Assembly (NCBI GenBank): GCA_017518185.1
Contig: JAFWWB010000037.1
Span: forward strand, 13,486 to 77,485
Reading direction: 5' to 3'
Source of the DNA: Lachnospiraceae bacterium
GTDB taxonomy: Bacteria; Bacillota; Clostridia; Lachnospirales; Lachnospiraceae
DNA: 64,000 nucleotides
Shown here piece after piece: positions 25,841-62,039 of the stretch (its first letter is position 1; each line of letters begins with the position of its first letter). Both the position numbers and the translations under genes were made by a program. The notes under the pieces were generated by a model. It was not told the DNA's origin and did no database searches. It saw only the letters and a list, made by a program, of their open reading frames with translations.

Positions 25841-26858
25841 GGTTCTCCTCCGCTTCCATTGCCTCTATCTCAGCGGCCGCCGCCGTCATATCCACGGTCT
25901 CCGCAAGCTCGGATCTTTCGAAATGCTTCTCCCTGAAGGCCCGCCAGTCAAACACTGCTTCCACCGAGGCTATAGCCACTTCCACCATTTCCTCGTCCGG
26001 CTCCCTGGTGGTGATGCGCTGCATCCAGAGCCCCGGTGCAGAAATGATGCTCAGAATGATGCTGTCCCTCTTTCCGGCCAGCTGCAGGAGCTCATAGGAT
26101 ATACCCGCTATGACCGGGATCAGAGCCAGTCTGATCACCACCCTCATCCACAGTATCTCCGTGCGTATGAAGAAACAGAGTATCACTCCCAGCAGCACCA
26201 CAAACAGCATGAAGCTGGTGCCGCAGCGCTTGTGGAAACGGGATGACCTCATAACATTCCTTACCGTAAGGGCCCTGCCCTGCTCCACGCAGTTTATGCA
26301 TTTATGCTCGGCTCCGTGATACATATAAAGTCTGCGTATATCCTTCATAAGCGCGATGGAGGCCACATAGATGATGAATACCGCTATCCTTATGCCGCCC
26401 TCCGTAAGCAATATCAGGGATTCGCTGCTTACACGCTTTCTCAAAAGCTCCGATACCCCCCAGGGCAGCAGCATGAACAGCGCCACCGCGAATATGATGG
26501 AAATGAACACCGTCAGTCCCATGACCACATCCTCGGCCTTGTCACCGAAGAGCTTTTCAAGCAGGGATTTCTTCCCGTTCTCTTCCTCTTCCTCATCATC
26601 ATAGAATTCCGCCGACCAGGAAAGGGTGTTCATCCCCAGCTTCAGCGAGTCGATGAAGGCCACGATCCCCCTTACAAAGGGTATGCGCCTTATAAGGCTT
26701 TTGGGATCGTAATCCAGGGTGCTAACGTTGACCTGTATGTCCCCGTCCGGTCTGCGCACGGCAGTGGCATACTCTCCCCTGTTCTTCATCATGACGCCCT
26801 CCAGCACGGCCTGTCCGCCTATACCGGAGTATACGGTCCTTCTTTTCTTTTTTGCCAT
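25833..26858 (-). CDS. DUF1385 membrane protein
   Basis: IGGQAVLEGVMM, YHGAEHK, HKRCGTSF; conserved rpmE-DUF1385-prmC-prfA order. Confidence 0.9.
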   Translation of the reverse strand: MAKKKRRTVYSGIGGQAVLEGVMMKNRGEYATAVRRPDGDIQVNVSTLDYDPKSLIRRIPFVRGIVAFIDSLKLGMNTLSWSAEFYDDEEEEENGKKSLLEKLFGDKAEDVVMGLTVFISIIFAVALFMLLPWGVSELLRKRVSSESLILLTEGGIRIAVFIIYVASIALMKDIRRLYMYHGAEHKCINCVEQGRALTVRNVMRSSRFHKRCGTSFMLFVVLLGVILCFFIRTEILWMRVVIRLALIPVIAGISYELLQLAGKRDSIILSIISAPGLWMQRITTREPDEEMVEVAIASVEAVFDWRAFREKHFERSELAETVDMTAAAAEIEAMEAEENRE

Positions 26859-26953
26859 TTTATTTTTTCCTCAATTTAGAAAAAGATAAAAAACAACAGG
26901 GCTGGAGCAGCAAAAACCGCTTCAACCCTGTCGCGTTGTTTTCCCGTATTATC

Positions 26954-27169
26954 CTACTTGGATGCAGATGCGTTGACGCCGTACTTCTTGTTGAACTTGT
27001 CAACACGGCCCCTGGCCTGGGTAGCCTTCTGCTGGCCGGTATAGAAAGGATGGCACTTGGAACAGATCTCCACGTGGATCTCTTTCTTTGTAGAACCTGT
27101 GACAAAAGTATTGCCGCAGTTGCAGGTAACGGTTGCCTGATAGTACTCGGGATGTATTCCCTCTCTCAT
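26954..27169 (-). CDS. rpmE: 50S ribosomal protein L31 (Zn-binding type A)
   Basis: [30 protein letters not shown]. Confidence 0.97.
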
Positions 27170-27258
27170 TTTTCTCTCCTTACTCCCCGCCTCACAAAAG
27201 CATAAGGTCAGTTCCGGCTGTTGTGTGCGGAGTACTGCTTGTTTACAAATGCCTGTAT

Positions 27259-27287
27259 ACTATACCACAGCCCCGGATCTAATGCAA
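27259..27287 (-). promoter_or_regulatory. Sigma-70 promoter of the rpmE operon
   Basis: TTGCAT-17-TATAGT with extended TG. Confidence 0.7.
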
Positions 27288-27294
27288 GACTTTT

Positions 27295-28212
27295 TTAGTC
27301 CAGATCACTCACCTTTCCGAATGAGCTGTCAAAGCTTCCCGTCTGCTGAGGAGCGGCCGGCTGCTGGGCAGGTGCAGAAGCCTGCTGCACGGGCTGCTGG
27401 CCGTATGCCTGCTGGGGCATTCCGTATCCGCCCTGGGGTGCGCCGTAGCCGTACTGCTGTGCGTACTGCTGCTGGGCCATATACTGCTGCTGAACCTGCT
27501 GCTGGGCCGCAAGCTTCTTTGCTTTAGTCTCTTTACCTGTGATGATCCCGTAAAATATTGTAGCTGCTATCGCGGTCACCGGCGCAAGGATAAGGCCGAG
27601 ACCGGGAGTCAACAGTATATCTTCCAGGGATTCGTCATATCCCAGATCAAAAAGCAGCACCATAGCTCCTCCGCCCAGGAATACCAGTATGCTGTATACG
27701 AGATACGGCACCATTGCCGCCTTCTTATCAAAGATGACGAGCAGTACCGAGATAAGCGCAAAGAAGACTGTCACACCTATGGCCACATTAAAGACTGTAT
27801 TGATCGCATTAAAGACCATTATAGTCTCCTCATCAAAGGTGTCAAACATATAAATGCCTGCGTCCTCAAGTTTTTCTTCCCACTTTGAAAACTCGATGAG
27901 CTCTTTTATTATCCCCTTCATGCTGAATATGCTGTAGGAAGGACCGGCGATAAGATCCCTGATGTTCTTTGTCTGCTTCAGCAGCTCCTTCACGTCCTTT
28001 TCGGTTATGCCGCCCTCCTCTTCGATCATTTCCCAGTCATCTTCATCAGCTTCGTCAAGGATATACTCTCCCTCCTCGATGGAATCGTCGAGACTGTCCG
28101 TCAGTTCCTCGATCTCATCGGTTGCCACCACCTTGAACAGCGGTCCCGCCACCAGGCAGAACACCGATGCTGCCAGCAGGATGATCGTTACGATCTTCTT
28201 TACAATATTCAT
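27295..28212 (-). CDS. Membrane protein with an acidic loop and a Gln/Pro/Tyr-rich cytoplasmic tail
   Basis: About 4 hydrophobic helices; tail QQQVQQQYMAQQQYAQQYGYGAPQGG. Confidence 0.75.
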   Translation of the reverse strand: MNIVKKIVTIILLAASVFCLVAGPLFKVVATDEIEELTDSLDDSIEEGEYILDEADEDDWEMIEEEGGITEKDVKELLKQTKNIRDLIAGPSYSIFSMKGIIKELIEFSKWEEKLEDAGIYMFDTFDEETIMVFNAINTVFNVAIGVTVFFALISVLLVIFDKKAAMVPYLVYSILVFLGGGAMVLLFDLGYDESLEDILLTPGLGLILAPVTAIAATIFYGIITGKETKAKKLAAQQQVQQQYMAQQQYAQQYGYGAPQGGYGMPQQAYGQQPVQQASAPAQQPAAPQQTGSFDSSFGKVSDLD

Positions 28213-48280: not shown

Positions 48281-48739
48281 TTAAGGAACCGTCCAGAAAT
48301 CGATAAGCTCCTTCATGCGGCTCAGGGCATGCCAGTACACGCCGTTGGTCACCCCCTGGTTCCACACATAGCCCCTGGTGTTGCCTTTTATCACATAGTT
48401 GGAGAGCACTGCTCCCAGCTTGCCTATATCCACGATCTGTATGCTGTCAATGAATCTGTGCTCATCCTCAACGGAACGTATCCTGTACTGCCTGTAGACA
48501 TACATGTAATTCCTGTCCAGGAACTTTGTCTTCTTTACCGCCTTCACAAAGCCCAGCAGAGTGGAATCATATACCGGGAAGCTGATGGTGGTCTTCTCCC
48601 CGTCTCCGGGTTGGTAATTGTTCGTAAGGTCTTCTCCCTTTTTACTCTCCAGCCAGCCCAGATACCGGCACAGCAGCTCCACGTCCCCGCGGTACTGCTC
48701 TATGGTACGGCTGATGCTCTCTTTTGTATCCTGAACCAT
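48281..48739 (-). CDS. Hypothetical protein
   Basis: 152-aa ORF with an AGGAGG RBS, directly after the hybrid kinase. Confidence 0.75.
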   Translation of the reverse strand: MVQDTKESISRTIEQYRGDVELLCRYLGWLESKKGEDLTNNYQPGDGEKTTISFPVYDSTLLGFVKAVKKTKFLDRNYMYVYRQYRIRSVEDEHRFIDSIQIVDIGKLGAVLSNYVIKGNTRGYVWNQGVTNGVYWHALSRMKELIDFWTVP

Positions 48740-48749
48740 AGTACCTCCT

Positions 48750-50972
48750 TTAGTAAAGCGCTCTTACCAGCTCCAGTGCGTCGTCGTATTCAAAATCCTC
48801 CACCGCCCTTTTTGCCTCCAGCAGCTGCCTTCTTATGGCCGCGCCCAGAGGATAGGTCAGCAGGTTGTCTATCTTCCTTGCCGCCTCGGACTGTTCCAAA
48901 AGCTCAAGGCTTCCCATAAGCTCGTGGAGCATATAGGAGAATTCCTCCGCGGAAAGCTTCTCCTCCCTTATCTGGATTATCTCCTCACGGAGCATTCCGG
49001 CATCGTTCAGAGTACTCTTTATGTTATCCAGCATTTTCTCATACATGCTGACGAGGAATGAACCCTCGCTCTTTATGACCTGTACCTTACCGTCCCTGCC
49101 GGCGTATTCCTGGAGCCTGGCCAGCTCCGCCAGCTGTGTGGCGCCTATGCCTGCCATAAGCCCCTTCAGTGCGTGGACCTCAAATATGTAGCGGCTGTAG
49201 TTTTCCGTATCCAGGCAGTCCTTGATGCGCTGCACATGGGAGGAGCCGTCGTCATAAATGTATTTGAGGATCTGCAGATACCTGCCCTTGTTCCCGCCGT
49301 AGTTCTTAAGTCCGGCTTCAACATCAACGTTGGGTATCTCTATCACCACATCGCTGTAGTCCATCTCCTCCTCGGAGCGGTCCACATGGTGGATTATCTC
49401 CGGAGGCAGGAATTCCAGGAGCACCGCCTCCATGCTGCTTATGGAGATGGGTTTGGAGATATACTCCTGAAAACCGTGCTGCATGAACATCTCCCTGGTG
49501 CCGTTTATGGCGTTGGCCGTAACCGCTATCACCGGGATGTTCCTGATACCGTGCTCTTTATGGTTCCTTATGAGCTCCGTGGTCTCTATACCGTCCATAT
49601 CCGGCATCATCTGGTCCATCAGCACCATATGGTAGTTGTTCTTTTCCAGCTTTTCCAGGCACTCCTTGCCGCTTAAGGCCGTATCCACGCGCACCTGGTA
49701 CATGTTCAGTATGCCCTGGGCCACCTTTATGTTGGTGATATTATCATCCACCACCAGTATCTTTCCGAGGGGTGCTATGAAGCTTCCCTTCTCAGCCTCG
49801 GCGGGAGCGGTAGCCTTGAGATAATCGTAATTGCCTATGGGGGATGCATCCGCAACCTTCTGGTAGTAATGGAAGGAGAACACGCTGCCTATGCCGTAAA
49901 TGCTCTTGACGGATATCTTGCCTCCCATGCCTTCCACCAGCCGCTTGACTATGGCCAGTCCCAGTCCGGTGCCCTCTATGGTACGGTTCTTGATCATGTC
50001 CGCACGCTGGAAGCTGTCGAAAAGCGTGGGTATGCTCTCTTCCTTGATGCCGCTGCCGGTGTCCTCGATGGAGACCTTGATCAGCGCCATATCCGCATGG
50101 GGTTCCCAGTCCACGTTAAGTCTTATATAACCGCGGCTGGTATATTTTGCCGCATTGGTAAGTATATTGGTATAGATCTGCCGTATCTGGGTCTCATCCC
50201 CGGTGAAGACCGAGGGCATGCTCTCCTTCACATGCACGATGAGCTCCACGTTCTTGCCCTTCAGCCTCAGGACTATCATGTTGCTTATGTCCTTGATCAG
50301 CAGGCCCAGATTGTAATCCGTCTCCTGGCTCTCCAGCCGTCCCGTCTCTATCTTGGAGAAATCCAGTATACCGTTTATTATGGACAGCAGCGTGTTCCCG
50401 GCACTGCGGATGTTCCTCGCATTCTCCTCCACGTTGCTGTTTATGTTATCGCTGAGTATGAGCTCCGACATGCCTATGATCGCATTCATGGGAGTACGGA
50501 TCTCGTGGCTCATATTTGCCAGGAAGAGCGTCTTGGCCCTGTTGGCCTCCTCGGCCTCCTCCTTCAGCTCTATAAGGCTCCTTGTGGCCTCATGCTCATC
50601 GGTCTTGTCGGTGATCCTGATGGTCACACCCATGTAGGTCTGCTTTTCATAGAAGGGGATAACGCTTATCTCCTGCTGCCGGCCTTCGATCTCCAGTTCT
50701 TTTCCGTCATTATCCTTAAGCATCTCCAGGACTTCCGGACGTTTTCCGTCATCCGAAAGATCCGGGAACACCTGTCTCGCCTTTTCGTTGGCATATATCA
50801 GTTCTCCCCGCTCGTCCGTAACGATAAGACCGTCCCTTATGGTCTCGACTATACCGGACAGGGGAAGTCTGGAACGCCGCTTTATCACGGCCGCTGTGCC
50901 CGTGATCAGCGCAGTGAGTATGACGCCCGCTGCGAAAGCTATGACAGCTGTGATCAACATATCTGCTCCCAT
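48750..50972 (-). CDS. Hybrid sensor histidine kinase (TM-PAS-HisKA-HATPase-REC-Hpt)
   Basis: FLANMSHEIRTPMNAI, DTGSGI, GTGLGL, LVVDDN...LMDQMMP...ISKP, EVHALKG. Confidence 0.93.
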   Translation of the reverse strand: MGADMLITAVIAFAAGVILTALITGTAAVIKRRSRLPLSGIVETIRDGLIVTDERGELIYANEKARQVFPDLSDDGKRPEVLEMLKDNDGKELEIEGRQQEISVIPFYEKQTYMGVTIRITDKTDEHEATRSLIELKEEAEEANRAKTLFLANMSHEIRTPMNAIIGMSELILSDNINSNVEENARNIRSAGNTLLSIINGILDFSKIETGRLESQETDYNLGLLIKDISNMIVLRLKGKNVELIVHVKESMPSVFTGDETQIRQIYTNILTNAAKYTSRGYIRLNVDWEPHADMALIKVSIEDTGSGIKEESIPTLFDSFQRADMIKNRTIEGTGLGLAIVKRLVEGMGGKISVKSIYGIGSVFSFHYYQKVADASPIGNYDYLKATAPAEAEKGSFIAPLGKILVVDDNITNIKVAQGILNMYQVRVDTALSGKECLEKLEKNNYHMVLMDQMMPDMDGIETTELIRNHKEHGIRNIPVIAVTANAINGTREMFMQHGFQEYISKPISISSMEAVLLEFLPPEIIHHVDRSEEEMDYSDVVIEIPNVDVEAGLKNYGGNKGRYLQILKYIYDDGSSHVQRIKDCLDTENYSRYIFEVHALKGLMAGIGATQLAELARLQEYAGRDGKVQVIKSEGSFLVSMYEKMLDNIKSTLNDAGMLREEIIQIREEKLSAEEFSYMLHELMGSLELLEQSEAARKIDNLLTYPLGAAIRRQLLEAKRAVEDFEYDDALELVRALY

Positions 50973-55249: not shown

Positions 55250-58200
55250 TTACTTAGCCGCAGTCACCACCACATTGATGGTCACGGTCTTGCCGTTTAT
55301 CTTTGCTGTAAGCTTTGTCTTTCCTGCTGCCTTTGCTATAAGGGTGCCGTCCTCATCCACAAAAGCGAAATCGGGTTTGCTGCTCTTGAACACCACTGCC
55401 TGATCGACAGACGCAAACTGAAGCTCAAGAGTGCTGCCTGTCGTGATCTCTGCAGTGTACTTATTGGCGCCCCTTGCTGCCTTAAGCACATCGCCTGTCT
55501 CCAGAGAGATGTCCTCTGCGATGAGCTCTACGGTCTGAACCTCTGCTCCGTTCTCGGAAGCGGTGAGCTTTACGGTTCCGGCTTTCTTCGCGGTGACCTT
55601 GTTCTTTATGCAGGGTGCCGCCGTATCATCCTCGCTGCTCCATACCGCCCTCTTTGCGCCGGTAACGCTCAGCTTCTTATGTCCATCAAGGTTCAGGTGC
55701 AGGGTGCGCTCCTTCGGTGCCACCTTTTCCTTTACGGTAACGGTACAGGTATAAGCCTTGCCGTTGATGTAGCAGCTTATCTTTGCCTTACCCTTTGCCA
55801 CTGCGGTCACGTTACCATCCTGGTCTACCGTAGCCACATCGGGTGAAGCACTGTACCAGTACCTGCTCGCAAGACCGGCATCTATTGTGCGCACTATCTC
55901 ATGTGTCGGCATAGTATCCGCGTTCTCAATGGTCAAAGTCCACTTCTTTTCAACCGCAGGTGTGCTCACATGCACCTTAAGCTGGCGTTCACCGAGGTAT
56001 ATTATAGCCTCGCCGTTCTTCTTGGCCTTGAAAACACCCTTCTTGCTGATGCTGACGATCTTTTTGCTTTCCTTGTCGGTACTCTTGACTGTCCAGCCGT
56101 CAGCTATAATGAACTTCTGTCCCTTAACTAACCAGATCTCCTCAGTATCATCATCGATCTCCGGCGTATTGTTAAGTGCAGATCCGGCTGTAACCGGTCC
56201 GGCTTTCTTCACCCACTTTGCAAAGATCGTCACATCACCGGTCACGGGGGTGTCGAAGTCATATACCGATGTGCCTTCCGCATCCACATACCATCCTGCG
56301 AACTCAAAGCCTGCCTTCACGGGATCGTTTGCGGGTCTGGTTACCTTGCTTCCGTCAGGAATATGGTAATCGGTAGGGATGTCTCCGGTACCGCCCTGAA
56401 GGTCAAAGCTGACCAGGCTTCCGGCACCTGCCGCCGACCATCTGGCATATATCACCGTATCGGCAGTGATAGGCGCATCAAAATCAAATTCCACATCACC
56501 TGCTGCGGTAGTGCACCATGCGATGAATTCAACACCGGCTGCGGTGGGATCGGTAGCAGGCCTTGTTGCCTTCTGTCCTTCGGCAACTGACTGTTCCTTG
56601 GGCACTGTTGCAGGATCTGCGGTCACGGTGCCAAGGTTAAACGAAACTGTGAATGTTGCAGCATCTTTCCATCCGGCATACAGAGTAAGATCCTTTGTTA
56701 CAGCTGTTGTGAACACATATTCATTCTCACAGCTCTCCTCGGTATACCAGCCTGTAAATACCAGGCCCTCCTTAGTGGGATCGGCAGGCTTTTCGACAGT
56801 GCTTCCTTTTTCTACCTTCGCTGAAGCGGGAACAGGCGTACCGCCCATTGCATTATAGCTGACCGTAAAGTATTCCTTTGCTGTCTCGCTTCCGATCTTT
56901 ACATGCTTAACGTTCTGATCGTTGCTGTCGGAAATATAAGTATAATGATATACTCCCTTCTGTACGCTTTTCATTTTTCCGTCTGCGGGTTCCAGGATAC
57001 TCATTCCTGTTGCCAGAACGATATCACCTTTAGCGCAGAGCACCGTACCTGTCGTAGTGTTCACTTCCAGCGTACCGCTGTTGACAGAGATGGAGCCGTT
57101 CGACCGGCATACAGTCGTCGTATCACTCAAACCGGTATTCTCATTTTCAATACTGATATCTCCGTCGGATATTATCACGCTCGCTTCTATGCCGCCGGTG
57201 GTCCCGGTGCTTATCTGCAGGCTGCCCTTCAGAGTGAGTTTACCGTTCTGAACAAAGATGTAATGATCAGCACCCGACCCTCCGTCGGTAAATGCTGTTC
57301 CGCTTCCGCCGTCGATGGTCAGATCACCCTTTGCGTAGATGACAGCGCTTCCCCAGGTATCATCCGTATGAATACCGCTAAAGCTCAGGGCAGGAGGTGT
57401 AAAGCTCAGGGTCTTTGTAGCAGGATCATAAGCGACGCCATAATCCCCGATATTTCCCTTATTCGCCTCGGTAACAGGTACACCGCCTACCCAGAGATCA
57501 TAGGCTTTGGCAGTAGTCTCTTCTATTGTAACAGCCGTGGCAGGCTTTCCGCTTCCGTTAAGCACGGTCGTGTACCCGGCGGATGTCCCGATCTCTCCTT
57601 CCGTGCTGCCGTCGATCTGCGTTATTGAGCTTAAGCTGTCTTCAGGAAACACTATAGCTTTCCGCGCCTGCACAGCCTCATAACTGCCCGAAAGATCAGC
57701 TTTACCCGCATGGAACACTATCTCGCCTGCCGAAAGGCCAATACCGTATTTACCGTCACCAATAAGTGAAAGAGTACCGCCATAGACATATACATTGCCT
57801 AATGTGGACAGACCCTTTCCGTTGTCGCTAAAAGCTGTTGCTGCTATGCTGCCCCCGTAAAGATCAACATCCTTATCACAGACGATGCCGCTGTAGCTAT
57901 TTTCTGACTTGTCAGTACTGGATGCCGATATCTTAGCCGTCGTTGCGGGCTCTTCCTCGGAAATCTCCTCTGATCCGACCTCTAGAGCCCCCGAAAGCTG
58001 GATAGCATGCTTCTGGGCAGTCACATAAACCTCAGTTCCCCCATCTGCTTTGAGACCTGCGGCGATAATGCCCATATTCGTGCAGTCCGTTATATTGATC
58101 TCACCGCCGTGAACTTCGATATTTCCGCTTTTGATACCGTAATCCACACCGGTTACGCTGAATTTTGCCTTCTCAAAGAAAAGCTCCGTATCCTTATCAT

Positions 58201-59962
58201 CCTCATCACTGTGAGCCACGATAGCGTATCCGGCACTCCCGCCGTCTATATTTACCTTACCGGTGATGGAAAGACCCGCGATGCCGGAATGGATCAGCAC
58301 GGTTTTTCCGTTATATGTCGTGGTTCCGCTGATCGCAGTCACATTATCGAAGTCGAGCGTCTGTGTCTCTGGATCATAATATGCACTGCCCTTTCCCGAA
58401 GGGATCGAATCAATATTATCGCGGTTGAGATCAGTGACCTGCTTACCACCGACATACAGATCATATTTCTTACCGAAGGCAGCAGTCAGGCTGGGCCCTG
58501 TGCTGCCCTTGCCCCCCACTATCCTATCATAACCCTCAGTTCTGATCTCACAATTATCAGACAGAAGTTCAATTCCATCATCGCTTTTGAGATTGATCTT
58601 ACCGTATGTGACCTTAACAGCTCCCAATCCACCCATGAGGTTCACAAGCCCTTTATTAATGGTCAGATCATGTGCATTCCATACATAGACACCGTAATGC
58701 GCTTTGCTGGTTGTTTTAAAGTTACCGTCAAAGGTAAGATCTGCAATAGCTCCATATGTGTAATCCGAAACCACGCTGCAGTCATACAGTGTTCTCAGCG
58801 TCAGATCCGTCCTGGTAAAAATCCCGAAATTATAACCACCAACAGTACTCTCGTATCCCTTACCTATCGTTGTGTTGCCTGAAAAAGTAAGAACCTTACC
58901 TTTTTCATCATATTTAACCTTTCCGTTTCCGAGTACATCAGACTTATTGGCTGGTGTTACAGCCGTTTCACCAACCCATACACCATACGCTTCTTCGATC
59001 ACAACATGCTTTAAGGGATCGGATCCGGTCTTCTCTGTGAAGGCAGTGTAATGATCATTCTTATCTTTTTCCATGTTAACAAATGTTGCAGGACTGGTGA
59101 CATAGATACCGTCGCCAAGCTCAGGCTTTTCGGTACCTGAAGTATAGAGTGCTCCAATACATAAATCGAGTGCAAAATCTCCCGTGGACGTTCCGGAATT
59201 TGAGGTAAGATCCGCCCTTCCTCCTTCAAAGATCAGCTTTGCTCCCTCTACATATACGGCTGTTCTCTCAGCGGAGAGAGTCAGATTACCGCTAATTGTG
59301 AGAGTTCCCTCTTTGGAATATACGCCGTATGTATTACCTGCTGTTGTCAGACTGCCGGTTATCTTAAGATCATCTTCCGTATAGATTGCCGCATTCACAC
59401 TACCATAACCCGTGCTCCAGCTATGCGAACCATCTACCTTTGCATCCCCTTCAAAATTCAGGGTCTTTGTAGCAGGGTTATACGTAGCGCTGCCGGACTT
59501 CATGTGGATGTTGTCCTTATTGACAGAAGTGACCTGTTCGCCGCCGACCCAGAGCTTGTATTCAGTAGCGCCTTCAGGATCCGCAATTTCCGTCTCTTCG
59601 GGCTCATCGGCATCGCTCTGCTCAACCTCCGCCTCAACTTCAGCTTCCTCTTTCTCGGCTTCTACAGCTTCCTCAGCCTCTTCCTCTGCTGTCTCCTCAA
59701 AAGCCTCAGCCTCATCAGCTGCTTCAGCCTCTTCGGTATCGGCATCCTCTGCCTCTGCCGTTACGTCATCTTCAGCATCAGCCGTCTCTTCCTCAGCCAC
59801 AGCATCCTCTGTGTCATCAGCTTCTTCCGCATCAAACACAGCCTCTTCATCCGCATCTTCTGCGGCAAGTACGGTAAGCCCAAGATCAGGCACCATGGTA
59901 AAGATAAGCATGAAGCTCATGATCAGGCTCAGCAAACGTCTCTTTAAAACTTTTGCTTTCAT
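55250..59962 (-). CDS. Large secreted surface protein (about 1570 aa): acidic linker, repeated beta-rich modules, three InlB-B/Flg_new-type repeats, C-terminal Ig-like domains
   Basis: Signal peptide MKAKVLKRRLLSLIMSFMLIFTMVP; four Yx(L/V)(W/Y)VGxxxVTxxN motifs; three xxVS(Y/F)...F..W...W repeats; start reassigned to 59962 after AAGGAGG. Confidence 0.88.
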   Translation of the reverse strand: MKAKVLKRRLLSLIMSFMLIFTMVPDLGLTVLAAEDADEEAVFDAEEADDTEDAVAEEETADAEDDVTAEAEDADTEEAEAADEAEAFEETAEEEAEEAVEAEKEEAEVEAEVEQSDADEPEETEIADPEGATEYKLWVGGEQVTSVNKDNIHMKSGSATYNPATKTLNFEGDAKVDGSHSWSTGYGSVNAAIYTEDDLKITGSLTTAGNTYGVYSKEGTLTISGNLTLSAERTAVYVEGAKLIFEGGRADLTSNSGTSTGDFALDLCIGALYTSGTEKPELGDGIYVTSPATFVNMEKDKNDHYTAFTEKTGSDPLKHVVIEEAYGVWVGETAVTPANKSDVLGNGKVKYDEKGKVLTFSGNTTIGKGYESTVGGYNFGIFTRTDLTLRTLYDCSVVSDYTYGAIADLTFDGNFKTTSKAHYGVYVWNAHDLTINKGLVNLMGGLGAVKVTYGKINLKSDDGIELLSDNCEIRTEGYDRIVGGKGSTGPSLTAAFGKKYDLYVGGKQVTDLNRDNIDSIPSGKGSAYYDPETQTLDFDNVTAISGTTTYNGKTVLIHSGIAGLSITGKVNIDGGSAGYAIVAHSDEDDKDTELFFEKAKFSVTGVDYGIKSGNIEVHGGEINITDCTNMGIIAAGLKADGGTEVYVTAQKHAIQLSGALEVGSEEISEEEPATTAKISASSTDKSENSYSGIVCDKDVDLYGGSIAATAFSDNGKGLSTLGNVYVYGGTLSLIGDGKYGIGLSAGEIVFHAGKADLSGSYEAVQARKAIVFPEDSLSSITQIDGSTEGEIGTSAGYTTVLNGSGKPATAVTIEETTAKAYDLWVGGVPVTEANKGNIGDYGVAYDPATKTLSFTPPALSFSGIHTDDTWGSAVIYAKGDLTIDGGSGTAFTDGGSGADHYIFVQNGKLTLKGSLQISTGTTGGIEASVIISDGDISIENENTGLSDTTTVCRSNGSISVNSGTLEVNTTTGTVLCAKGDIVLATGMSILEPADGKMKSVQKGVYHYTYISDSNDQNVKHVKIGSETAKEYFTVSYNAMGGTPVPASAKVEKGSTVEKPADPTKEGLVFTGWYTEESCENEYVFTTAVTKDLTLYAGWKDAATFTVSFNLGTVTADPATVPKEQSVAEGQKATRPATDPTAAGVEFIAWCTTAAGDVEFDFDAPITADTVIYARWSAAGAGSLVSFDLQGGTGDIPTDYHIPDGSKVTRPANDPVKAGFEFAGWYVDAEGTSVYDFDTPVTGDVTIFAKWVKKAGPVTAGSALNNTPEIDDDTEEIWLVKGQKFIIADGWTVKSTDKESKKIVSISKKGVFKAKKNGEAIIYLGERQLKVHVSTPAVEKKWTLTIENADTMPTHEIVRTIDAGLASRYWYSASPDVATVDQDGNVTAVAKGKAKISCYINGKAYTCTVTVKEKVAPKERTLHLNLDGHKKLSVTGAKRAVWSSEDDTAAPCIKNKVTAKKAGTVKLTASENGAEVQTVELIAEDISLETGDVLKAARGANKYTAEITTGSTLELQFASVDQAVVFKSSKPDFAFVDEDGTLIAKAAGKTKLTAKINGKTVTINVVVTAAK

Positions 59963-60089
59963 CTCGTCCTCCTTATGCATGATTTTTGCTGTCGTATGGT
60001 ATACCCATACAGAGTAGAAGATATCACAAAAGAAGCGGTTTTTCAACCGCCCCCGGGGAGTCTTCTAACGGGATCAACCGAAAGAAATG

Positions 60090-61127
60090 TCAACGATAAC
60101 TCTTTATCACTTCATAAAGGCGTGGAAGTGCAAATGAAACATATCCGTAATCCGGAGAACTGATTATACCTTTTTGGATAAGGTTATCTCTGTAACGCGA
60201 AAAAGTACCACTACTCATGGACAATCTTTTACAAACTTCTCCTGTTCTGACATCTTTTTCGGGGAGTGCACGTAAGACCTCCTTTTCTTTTCTGGATAAT
60301 GAAGACCAGATCTTCTTATAGACAAAATCATCCAGCAGCACATCAAATTCATTCAGAACTGCCTCTTTACTTTTCGATCTGTTGTTCCAATATGCCACCC
60401 CCAAAGCCTGAAAAGCAAAGGCATAACCTTTTGTCAGATCAGCCAACCCGGCCGCTTCTTCTTCGGGTATATCAAATATGTCTCTGTACTGTCTGGTGAT
60501 CTGAAGAATACTTAAGGGTCCTGTAATAATTTTGGGAGTCCTGAGCAGAAAAGTCAGTGCAGGATCATTCTGAATGGCGCTGATGTTCTCATATAAGCCT
60601 GTCATTATCAGATAGACCGGGTAATCCTGCCTTACAAAGATCTGAAACTGACTGGCAAACACTTTCATATTATCATCATGCATCACCTCGTCTATGGTGA
60701 TCAATACCTTTTTCTTCTTCCTGACAATACTCTTAAAACATTTGTCTATCATTCCGACATAGTCATTTGTCTGCGCCTCTGCATTTATCCCTATGCCAAA
60801 CCCTGCAGCCGATAAATTAATGCCCTTGCTTACTATATCATGTGAGGGATCACTTGCCTTGGAAAGCCTTACGGCGAAATTTGCCAGAAGCTCCATCGCC
60901 GGATTAAGATCGACCACGATCCAATCCTTTTCCTGTTTCAGGATATTGGCCACTGTCGTCATAAGAACTGTTTTCCCGCTGCCCCTTATCCCTTCGATCA
61001 TATAAGCCTGACTTACTGCATTGTCAGCTTTAAAGGCACTGATGATACTGTCCGTGTCCTCAATTCTTGAGATCAGCTTATTGGGTTGTTTTCCGAAAGT
61101 TATTGTAAAAGGATTCCCGGCGTTCAT
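60090..61127 (-). CDS. Solo AAA+/P-loop ATPase (AAA_16-like) with a C-terminal winged HTH
   Basis: NPFTITFG, Walker A GIRGSGKT, Walker B ITIDEV, tail LSMSSGTFSRYRDNLIQKGII. Confidence 0.88.
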   Translation of the reverse strand: MNAGNPFTITFGKQPNKLISRIEDTDSIISAFKADNAVSQAYMIEGIRGSGKTVLMTTVANILKQEKDWIVVDLNPAMELLANFAVRLSKASDPSHDIVSKGINLSAAGFGIGINAEAQTNDYVGMIDKCFKSIVRKKKKVLITIDEVMHDDNMKVFASQFQIFVRQDYPVYLIMTGLYENISAIQNDPALTFLLRTPKIITGPLSILQITRQYRDIFDIPEEEAAGLADLTKGYAFAFQALGVAYWNNRSKSKEAVLNEFDVLLDDFVYKKIWSSLSRKEKEVLRALPEKDVRTGEVCKRLSMSSGTFSRYRDNLIQKGIISSPDYGYVSFALPRLYEVIKSYR

Positions 61128-61152
61128 GACATATGCTCCTCTCTTTTTGAGA

Positions 61153-61181
61153 ATCTTACCATAACTTTCTTAAAAATGCAA
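61153..61181 (-). promoter_or_regulatory. Sigma-70 promoter of the second ATPase
   Basis: TTGCAT-17-TAAGAT with extended TG; one GTTATG box lies in the spacer. Confidence 0.65.
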
Positions 61182-61263
61182 TTCTATACATAACTTTTCA
61201 TAACCAGACATAACCCCACCATTTCAGAGAAACTAAACATAACTCAACATAACTTATCACAAC
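61160..61263. repeat. Phased CATAAC direct-repeat array
   Basis: CATAAC at 61160, 61189, 61199, 61209, 61238, 61248 and CACAAC at 61258. Confidence 0.88.
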
Positions 61264-61301
61264 TCACCATTAGCTCCCCTGTTCATGTTCGGGCGGGTCC
61301 C

Positions 61302-61348
61302 AAACTCAGAAAGCGTTACATGCAAGCATGACCGCTTTCTGAGCTTTT
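61302..61348 (-). terminator. Hairpin terminator after larB
   Basis: CTCAGAAAGCG...CGCTTTCTGAG 11-bp stem with an inner CATGC/GCATG stem. Confidence 0.7.
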
Positions 61349-61367
61349 GACCCTGGCATCATTTTAT

Positions 61368-62039
61368 TCATTTCGTCGCAAGCCTGTTTATCTGCACTGC
61401 CATATAACCGGCGCCGTAGCCGTTGTCTATGTTCACGACGGCGACACCGTTGGCGCAGGAATTGACCATGGTCAGCAGCGCGGACAGGCCTCCAAATGAG
61501 GCTCCGTAGCCCACAGAGGTAGGCACCGCGATGACAGGGTTCTTTACCAGTCCCCCGATGACGCTTGCCAGGGCTCCCTCCATTCCCGCGACCGCTATAA
61601 CGCAGTTGGCTTCCCGGATCTCGTCCACCCTCGAGAGCAGCCTGTGGAGCCCGCTCACACCGGCGTCATACACACGCAGTACCCTGCTGCCAAAATATTC
61701 CGCGGTTGCCGCCGCTTCTTCGGCTACGGGTATATCCGCAGTCCCCGCGCAGCACACGGCGATCAGCCCCTTCTGCTCCGCAGGATGCGGTTCGATCTTC
61801 AATATGCGGGAAACCGGATCGTAGACCGCTTCCGGAAACTCCGCCTTTACCAGCTCATACTGATGTTCACTGGCTCTGGTCCCAAAGGCGCAGCCGCAGC
61901 TCTCGTACATGCTCTTATATATCGCTGTGAGATGATCGTCCTTCTTGCCCTGGCAGAAGATCACCTCGGCAAAGCCGGTACGCTCCTCACGCTCCATGTC
62001 GAGCTTCGCAAAGCCCAGATCCTTTACCCGTTCATCCAT
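61368..62039 (-). CDS. larB: Nickel-pincer cofactor biosynthesis protein LarB
   Basis: AEVIFCQGK, AGTADIPVAEEA, DAGVSGLHRL, VAGMEGAL, IAVPTSVGYG; start reassigned to 62039. Confidence 0.95.
   Translation of the reverse strand: MDERVKDLGFAKLDMEREERTGFAEVIFCQGKKDDHLTAIYKSMYESCGCAFGTRASEHQYELVKAEFPEAVYDPVSRILKIEPHPAEQKGLIAVCCAGTADIPVAEEAAATAEYFGSRVLRVYDAGVSGLHRLLSRVDEIREANCVIAVAGMEGALASVIGGLVKNPVIAVPTSVGYGASFGGLSALLTMVNSCANGVAVVNIDNGYGAGYMAVQINRLATK

Follow-up and report, generated by a model that had tools for sequence, protein, structure and literature searches.

The stretch of DNA considered here, a 64,000-nucleotide window of contig JAFWWB010000037.1 from a Lachnospiraceae bacterium (assembly GCA_017518185.1), carries on its minus strand a gene (60090..61127) specifying a 345-amino acid P-loop ATPase with a C-terminal winged helix-turn-helix (wHTH) domain, and directly upstream of it an array of short direct repeats which covers the predicted promoter of the gene. 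We present evidence that gene and array probably form a self-contained autoregulatory unit. The analysis was computational throughout, and promoter positions are consensus predictions. The open reading frame (ORF) occurs in a single copy in this genome. An earlier interpretation made from the letters alone (the sequence-only reading) had ascribed Walker A and B motifs and a C-terminal wHTH to the protein, and all three are recognizable: the P-loop GIRGSGKT (residues 46–53; 60969..60992) and the Walker B motif ITIDE (residues 143–147; 60687..60701) in the translation and in an alignment of 21 homologs, and the wHTH (residues ~276–335; 60123..60302), with the putative recognition helix SSGTFSRYRDNLIQKG, from weak Pfam matches and a structural model. 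A ribosome-binding site, GAGGAG (61136..61141), lies 8 nt before the ATG at 61127. A terminator scan placed an intrinsic terminator-like hairpin with a 10-bp stem and a T-tract 36 bp past the stop codon (60031..60054). All of these features are on the minus strand.

Proceeding along the gene strand from the preceding stop codon at 61368, one encounters an 80-bp hairpin (61283–61362), a distal triplet of boxes (61238..61263), a gap of 23 bp, a middle triplet (61189..61214), the sequence TATAGAA, the predicted -35 hexamer TTGCAT (61176..61181), a 17-bp spacer which ends in GTTATG followed by G, the predicted -10 hexamer TAAGAT (61153..61158), and then GAGGAG and the ATG. The sequence-only reading had listed seven CATAAC boxes on the plus strand with spacings of 29, 10, 10, 29, 10 and 10. 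Six of these (61160, 61189, 61199, 61209, 61238 and 61248) are exact and the spacings hold; the seventh, at 61258, is CACAAC, with one mismatch. In the orientation of the gene every box reads GTTATG, save for GTTGTG at 61258. Pattern searches recovered both triplets with their 10-bp spacing, the distal one also being reported by Tandem Repeats Finder with a period of 10, and the middle one abuts the -35 region. The single proximal copy, box 1 (61160..61165), does sit between TTGCAT and TAAGAT, as had been proposed, and donates the TG (61161–61160) of the TGG which precedes TAAGAT and makes it an extended -10. The same TTGCnn-17-TAAGAT layout, with a box providing the extended -10 TG and with TGGTAAGAT at the -10 region, is repeated at four close homolog loci (L002, L004, L008, L014).

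The 3.325-Mb assembly contains 1547 copies of GTTATG on both strands (2.3e-4 per position and strand), giving an expectation of ~0.02 per 100 bp and strand, as against six exact copies on one strand within 94 bp here; the Poisson probability of this is ~1e-13 per segment of that size. Pairs of the form GTTATG-N4-GTTATG occur four times in the genome, three of them at this array. Exact and in-phase chain searches permitting one mismatch per box revealed no second GTTATG array anywhere in the genome, on which ground the notion of a classical regulator with many targets was rejected. The array is therefore non-random and, within its own genome, confined to the promoter of the ATPase gene. The sole longer chains in the one-mismatch scan derive from a GTTCTG coding repeat on contig C31 (~48566–48920, minus strand), the 9-bp period of which, (G/A)TTCTG(G/A)CC, probably belongs to a collagen-like or Gly/Gln/Asn-rich repeat protein and is a false positive of the box-chain scan.

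The protein belongs to a large family, with 2510 matches in a database clustered at 90% identity and 2667 clusters at 50% identity, nearly all of 340–365 amino acids and mostly unnamed or annotated merely as "ATP-binding protein". Most members are from the Lachnospiraceae (Butyrivibrio, Pseudobutyrivibrio, Oribacterium, Eubacterium); further carriers are rumen and gut Treponema, and contigs of metagenome-assembled genomes (MAGs) labelled Prevotella and Selenomonadales; labels on MAG loci, those of Treponema and Prevotella for example, may reflect mis-binning. No description of the family or its arrays was found in the literature searched, the coverage of which was incomplete, so that this is absence of evidence only.

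We compared the 200–250 nt upstream of the start codon at 80 homolog loci. The sequence-only reading had made its idea depend upon homologs also possessing arrays, and it survives this comparison: nearly all of the 80 loci have head-to-tail direct repeats, which point the same way with respect to the gene. The number of shared 6-mers in these upstream regions peaks at shifts of 10, 19, 29 and 39 nt (633, 360, 883 and 716 instances, respectively), most other shifts giving single- or double-digit counts; 414 control upstream regions taken from the same loci were far flatter, with slight rises at 10, 29, 30 and 39 only. A 6-mer score for shifts of 10, 20 and 30 lay above threshold in 62 of 79 family regions and in 9 of the 414 controls, and most of the low-scoring family loci also have repeats, at different spacings. 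The arrangement obeys a simple rule. A group consists of two or three boxes at 10-bp intervals, and from one group to the next the spacing is 19 bp (or 18, 29 or 9), almost never 20 or 30. In a set dereplicated at 85% identity, which left 58 proteins, spacings of 10 were counted 165 times, 18 19 times, 19 64 times, 20 five times, 28 three times, 29 20 times and 30 four times; 19 thus accounts for 64 of the 88 spacings in the 18–20 range (p=6e-14). The median number of boxes per array is six. The 3+3+1 array with its 29-bp gaps described above is one case of this 10n-1 rule.

The rule bears upon the further claim that the two triplets and the single copy all fall on about the same face of the helix. 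This is correct within each triplet and fails between the groups, 29 bp not being a whole number of turns; calculated with 10.5 bp per turn, the angle between the three groups of this array would be ~120 degrees. With 10.0 bp per turn in the complexed DNA, the same arithmetic would give a step of -36 degrees at each group boundary whatever the value of n.

Array layout is kept across phyla, down to about 25% protein identity. A homolog on the Pseudobutyrivibrio plasmid pNP95 (37% identical) is preceded by seven ATACTAAAG boxes arranged 2+2+3, with 10 bp within and 29 bp between the groups, and homologs on Arthrobacter and Citricoccus plasmids (26–28% identical) have four ACTCACA or GT(A/T)CAC boxes, spaced 10, 9 and 10 bp, directly before the start codon. 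The core of the earlier proposal, that an oligomerising ATPase-wHTH protein loads onto phased direct repeats at its own promoter, is strongly supported by this family comparison, which remains one of predicted binding sites.

The layout is shared, in all by about 100 relatives, and the box itself varies with the protein clade, from GTTATG(G/A)T through ATTATGAA, TTTATGAA, ATTATGATA, (C/G)TTGTGATAA and GTTATCC to (T/A)TTGGAA and ATATGAT. The start of the predicted recognition helix varies alongside (SSGTF, TSSVF, SNTSFP, KNESF, KGTTF, KKSS, KPNSF). Paralogs within one genome also differ. Those of genome G173 have ATATAAA, AC(G/T/A)ATAAA, (G/A)TTGTGAAAG and GTATAAAA; those of G140, TTTGGAA, TTTTAGTAA/TTTTATAAA and CAGTAAAA; those of G075, AGTAAA, GTTATAACC and ATTATATAG; and those of G201, ATTATGAT and ATTATATAG. 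The paralog pairs L009/L067, L010/L072 and L061/L077 likewise have unlike boxes, and the sole case of two copies with similar boxes is G284. Since the boxes of paralogs differ even inside a single genome, the binder cannot be a host factor common to them. In three other genomes every genomic box pair sits upstream of its cognate gene, and in G262 four box pairs recur at exactly 29-bp intervals. Some genomes have two family members side by side, as tandem copies (L045 and L054), or close together, as on contig C153 of G336 (two copies ~10 kb apart); such close-set copies might be recent duplicates which are diverging in specificity.

At 76 of the 80 loci the best sigma-70-like promoter is overlapped by one or more boxes, or has one or more between itself and the start codon. 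In the Butyrivibrio clade one box pair exactly fills the spacer of TTGAAT-18-TATAAT and another covers the region of the transcription start and ribosome-binding site; in other clades a near-consensus promoter lies upstream of the entire array. What the clades share would be a nucleoprotein complex sitting on a fairly strong promoter or immediately downstream of one, which fits negative autoregulation. Repeats over the gene's own promoter, conserved in relatives, are the features of an autoregulated direct-repeat operator, and binding and repression are predicted from them. The array, its genome uniqueness, family conservation, clade-specific boxes, spacing rule, promoter overlap and the predicted protein fold are what sequence and comparison show.

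The protein has both signatures of P-loop NTPases, GxxxxGK[ST] and hhhhDE. In the 21-homolog alignment residues G46, G49, S50, G51, K52 and T53 of Walker A and T144, I145, D146 and E147 of Walker B (extended motif LITIDE, 142–147) are invariant, as are an N-terminal NPFT-TFG peptide and a block, MTGL...QNDPALTFLLRTPK, which includes R196, a candidate arginine finger. Assignment to a family is less straightforward. The Pfam models ATPase_2 (PF01637; 26.4 bits, cut-off 33.2), AAA_14 (25.7, cut-off 27), nSTAND_NTPase5 (19.8, cut-off 34) and NACHT (15.9, cut-off 26.7) all score below threshold, and HTH_24, MarR_2 and GerE match weakly at residues 275–325. Several homologs have a precomputed PF01637 match, and the protein would be a remote relative of ATPase_2 at best. 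A Cdc6/ORC model is absent among its 22 Pfam and 27 NCBIfam weak matches; searches of NCBIfam and PHROGs gave nothing significant, nor did a sequence-profile search of the PDB (ORC4, E=0.29).

An AlphaFold2 (AF2) model with a predicted local distance difference test score (pLDDT) of 74 comprises a P-loop core of five strands, a lid of helices and, at the C terminus, a winged helix, the last consisting of helices 279–287, 295–302 and 306–318 and a wing strand. The 345 residues are wholly assigned to these three parts, leaving no sensor domain. As regards the initiator-specific motif of the Orc1/Cdc6 clade, there is an insertion between beta2 and beta3 (helices 80–102 and a conserved Gly-rich loop, 103–120) which is modelled at pLDDT <50. 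The proposed structural analogy with Orc1/Cdc6 is borne out by a Foldseek search of the PDB with this model, in which DNA-bound archaeal Orc1/Cdc6 proteins occupy ranks 1–3 and 5 (2qby_A, 1fnn, 2qby_B, 2v1u; E values of 5e-13 to 8e-11 over ~390 aligned columns). The top match, at E=5e-13, is 2qby_A; the best TM-score (0.62) is that of SSO1545 (2fna), an uncharacterised archaeal AAA+ ATPase, and lower-ranking matches include eukaryotic ORC/Cdc6 subunits, Apaf-1 and NRC1. The model matches the overall Orc1/Cdc6 fold of AAA+ base, lid and C-terminal winged helix. In the 21-homolog alignment the lid carries TKGYAFAFQALG in place of the sensor-2 motif of Orc1 lids (GDAR), with no arginine at the presumed position of the sensor-2 residue. 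As far as model and alignments can tell, the protein is shaped like Orc1/Cdc6 and remotely related to ATPase_2, and by sequence is a member of neither.

Several known systems resemble parts of this arrangement. Archaeal Orc1/Cdc6 genes lie beside the ORB/mini-ORB origin repeats which their products bind, the protein sits as a monomer on polar repeats, and there may be several initiator-site pairs per genome. The likeness to the present protein lies in the order of domains and in the best full-length Foldseek matches (2qby, 2v1u, 1fnn). Significant sequence similarity is lacking, however (PDB profile E>0.1; no Pfam Cdc6/ORC match), and the boxes here are of 6–7 bp at 10-bp tandem spacing on a promoter, whereas the archaeal origin recognition boxes are of 20–35 bp and flank an unwinding region. 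ATPase_2 (PF01637; SSO1545, 2fna) provides the best TM-score, the best though sub-threshold Pfam match and an NPF...FG motif before the P-loop, but the present protein is shorter (345 versus ~460–490 amino acids) and lacks the DUF234-type C-terminal extension. We also considered whether 10-bp arrays are a general trait of ATPase_2 genes; the three bona fide members in this genome are without them, and one has inverted repeats instead. On contig C75 of this same genome, ~240 bp upstream of an ATPase_2 match (26849–27469, minus strand), a canonical ATPase_2-type gene (477 amino acids) has the inverted repeats TTTTATCTTTAA / TTAAAGATAAAA, which occur several times before its start; this suggests that this related family also possesses self-operators, palindromic rather than 10-bp tandem.

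MalT and the AfsR/SARP-NB-ARC proteins, members of the STAND class (signal transduction ATPases with numerous domains), are P-loop NTPases in which nucleotide-dependent self-association leads to cooperative binding to asymmetric direct-repeat promoter boxes. They are two to three times larger, however, have sensor domains and LuxR- or SARP-type DNA-binding domains, and activate regulons; this protein is without a sensor domain and has, by box searches, a single target locus. The winged helices of OmpR/PhoB and SARP proteins bind head-to-tail to 6–7-bp cores every ~10–11 bp, overlapping the -35 region, but they are dimerised by a phosphorylated receiver domain and not by an ATPase, usually occupy two repeats as against 4–16 here, and follow no 10n-1 rule. 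Direct-repeat arrays at the binder's own promoter, self-repression, private or incompatibility-like specificity and accessory replicons are found together in R1 ParR-parC, in iteron Rep proteins and in DnaA. Those systems have a small ribbon-helix-helix or double winged-helix binder with a separate NTPase (ParM/ParA), or a defined origin, whereas here one polypeptide holds both functions and no partner gene is conserved.

The gene is accessory: of 301 Lachnospiraceae genomes sampled, 38 have it, as do 20 of the 45 species of its own genus, with 1–5 copies per carrier genome and occasional pseudogenes. Copies within the genus are similar only over the gene and part of the promoter. Within-genus synteny did not define insertion boundaries, the flanks not being syntenic and homology to the same-genus copies stopping at the gene ends. 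A segment of ~1.28–1.42 kb comprising array and gene is 96.5–98.7% identical among five Butyrivibrio species-level genomes (L015, L023, L025, L026, L028) and an Oribacterium (L027), and a further Butyrivibrio MAG (L031) shares ~1.13 kb of it. The right edge of this cassette is sharp, 22 bp past the stop codon at ...GGTCTCCTAAACAAG, the left edge is variable and the flanks are unrelated. As near-identical segments are found in different species within unrelated flanks, array and gene move laterally as a cassette of 1.1–1.4 kb, and the degree of identity indicates that transfer was recent. No recombinase is linked to these near-identical cassettes (L015, L023, L025–L028, L031). Distant homologs occur on 83 plasmid records, mostly actinobacterial; a candidate replication protein on an 11.5-kb Xanthomonas plasmid was discarded, the homolog being split into two ORFs and probably a pseudogene.

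The surroundings are equally varied. No conserved partner gene was found among ~570 neighbouring ORFs from 80 loci, which fall into 370 clusters. Next to the gene lie ordinary genes of metabolism, transport and regulation and now and then a recombinase, and 107 of these immediate neighbours showed no enrichment for any Pfam or PADLOC family. The few which match defence models do so mostly through families represented by single proteins (a reverse transcriptase, for example), and a defence-island signal is absent. The protein itself matches no PADLOC family, its best hits (E ~5e-4) being to the wHTH only, and no homologs were found by tblastn in 50,697 phage records; with PADLOC, PHROGs and phage searches negative or insignificant, membership in a known defence system was rejected. 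As a terminator follows the gene, no neighbour is conserved and the 107 immediate neighbours match 118 different Pfam families, the gene looks monocistronic.

We consider the most probable interpretation, at roughly 70%, to be a self-contained monocistronic autoregulatory unit, in which an ATPase of Orc1/Cdc6-like fold oligomerises on its private operator and represses its own promoter. Each winged helix would read one 6–7-bp core of the array, head-to-tail, and neighbouring protomers would pack in tandem every 10 bp in the manner of PhoB/OmpR or SARP winged helices. Contacts between ATPase domains, probably nucleotide-dependent, may then join protomers and the 10n-1-offset groups into a cooperative complex of ~6–7 protomers, these domains having an intact P-loop, a Walker B motif and the candidate arginine finger R196. 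Such a complex would cover ~105 bp, including the -35/-10 spacer and the extended -10, and thereby shut off transcription; negative feedback would hold the level of free protein constant. Repression upon binding, ATP-driven assembly, a filament and its geometry, and the stoichiometry are the parts of this scheme which we infer.

Several points weigh against it. Confidence in the AF2 model is moderate (pLDDT 74), and the conserved residues 1–20 and the Gly-rich loop 96–120 are unmodelled. Phylogeny confounds the correlation of box type with clade, and no base-to-residue recognition code could be separated from it. The promoter at this locus was missed by a simple consensus scan because TTGCAT fits TTGACA at 3 of 6 positions only. 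Some clades have all of their boxes to one side of the predicted promoter, either upstream or downstream of it, and simple occlusion may therefore not be the universal mode of action. Lastly, self-repression as a sole function makes no biological sense, so the module would have a further, main function.

Private sites, the differing boxes of paralogs, the lateral cassette and the plasmid relatives point to an autonomous accessory module, such as one of a conflict/sentinel or maintenance type, and not to a transcription factor in control of a regulon. The candidate roles, in descending order of our rough belief, are a conflict or sentinel module, a local regulator of downstream genes, and an initiator/loading-site module akin to archaeal orc1-oriC. 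Were the autoregulatory interpretation correct, a large uncharacterised family would acquire a specific DNA target together with a rule of binding in figures (boxes every 10 bp within groups, the groups offset by 10n-1), and an Orc1/Cdc6-shaped bacterial ATPase would be seen to be wired to a private repeat array beside its own gene, with different boxes on paralogs in one genome. Elsewhere such an organisation is characteristic of archaeal initiator-origin pairs and of plasmid systems for replication (Rep) or partition, and the question would arise of what so minimal a module does on bacterial chromosomes. The many natural protein-box pairs could also serve as small repressor/operator parts, probably without cross-reaction, and as data from which to work out a winged-helix recognition code.

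The alternative which fares best, though we regard it as unlikely, retains the same binding and has the protein control the genes downstream, either at the head of an operon or as a local regulator; here its target would be the gene of a 1598-amino acid surface protein. The next gene is indeed co-oriented here, a glycosyltransferase operon begins 23 bp downstream of the pNP95 homolog, and at 14 of 72 loci a gene on the same strand begins <60 bp past the stop codon. At this locus, however, the terminator with its 10-bp stem intervenes; between loci the downstream genes are unrelated and often convergent, and the near-identical cassettes lose homology 22 bp past the stop codon, beyond which their downstream genes differ. 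The ORF in question (55250–60046, minus strand) lies directly downstream of the ATPase gene terminator. Its product begins with what resembles a signal peptide (MKAKVLKRRLLSLIM...), is acidic over a long N-terminal stretch rich in Glu, Asp and Ala, and has repeated modules, beta-rich and Ig-like, in its C-terminal part; it is probably a giant cell-surface protein.

The chromosomes of archaea with multiple origins are organised as private initiator-site pairs, and the cassettes could be imagined as their bacterial counterparts: initiator and site modules of private specificity, spreading among gut and rumen bacteria and actinobacterial plasmids, in which an ATP-driven helical complex on the 10n-1-phased array would open DNA or load something onto it in an origin-, centromere- or clamp-loading-like fashion. 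We offer this as a speculation with long odds against it. Slightly more doubtful still is the proposal of an initiator with its origin, or a centromere-like module, captured from an extrachromosomal element, for which autoregulation would be a side effect. The best structural matches are to origin-bound archaeal Orc1/Cdc6, the private array adjoins the gene, paralog boxes differ, the distribution is patchy and lateral, and among the homologs on the 83 plasmid records one lies 2.7 kb from parA on a Citricoccus plasmid. Yet no plasmid or replication genes are conserved nearby, up to 5 copies are scattered among housekeeping genes, the boxes lie on a promoter and do not flank a separate unwinding element, and bacteria are without MCM. 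The copy on pNP95 is within a glycosyltransferase cluster and not at a rep/par locus, and the Arthrobacter plasmid has its own typed replicon.

That the adjacent protein does not bind the array at all, the repeats being bound by a host factor instead or having arisen neutrally through slippage or promoter duplication, is very improbable. Slippage could yield tandem units of 10 and 29 bp, 29 bp is the length of a promoter with a 17-bp spacer (-35-17-10), and some of the gaps hold -35- or -10-like hexamers; but this reading would have to accommodate arrays which are kept with differing boxes across phyla and to 25% protein identity, a 10n-1 rule which is conserved though the sequences are not, different boxes on paralogs in one genome, and the absence of the boxes from the remainder of four genomes. 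Least credible of all is that the repeats act as RNA, either in a structured Clostridiales-1-like RNA or as a 5' leader element: the array does lie between the predicted promoter and the ribosome-binding site in some clades, and Rfam RF01699 matches 61211–61361 on the gene strand at E=1e-8 (46.8 bits, gathering score 48), but that score comes from the hairpin at 61283–61362, the sole hairpin which aligns well and an independent repeat (also on contigs C46, C51 and C72) ending before the array, while across the boxes the posterior probability is low and base pairs are broken, the motif is found in 0 of 16 homolog loci, and six of the seven boxes here are upstream of the -35.

The hairpin itself (80 bp, minus strand), located between the preceding stop codon and the array, is 86–88% identical to its copies on those three contigs, and related copies are present in same-genus genomes. 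It behaves as a dispersed repeat like the repetitive extragenic palindromic (REP) elements, or as a terminator, and does not belong to the ATPase module. Few contexts hint at a conflict or defence neighbourhood; one that does is that of the distant homolog on the linear plasmid pLP414 of Rhodococcus opacus (L113; 3296–4468), which is located near the plasmid end beside genes annotated as "beta family protein", "sce7726 family protein" and "Abi family protein".

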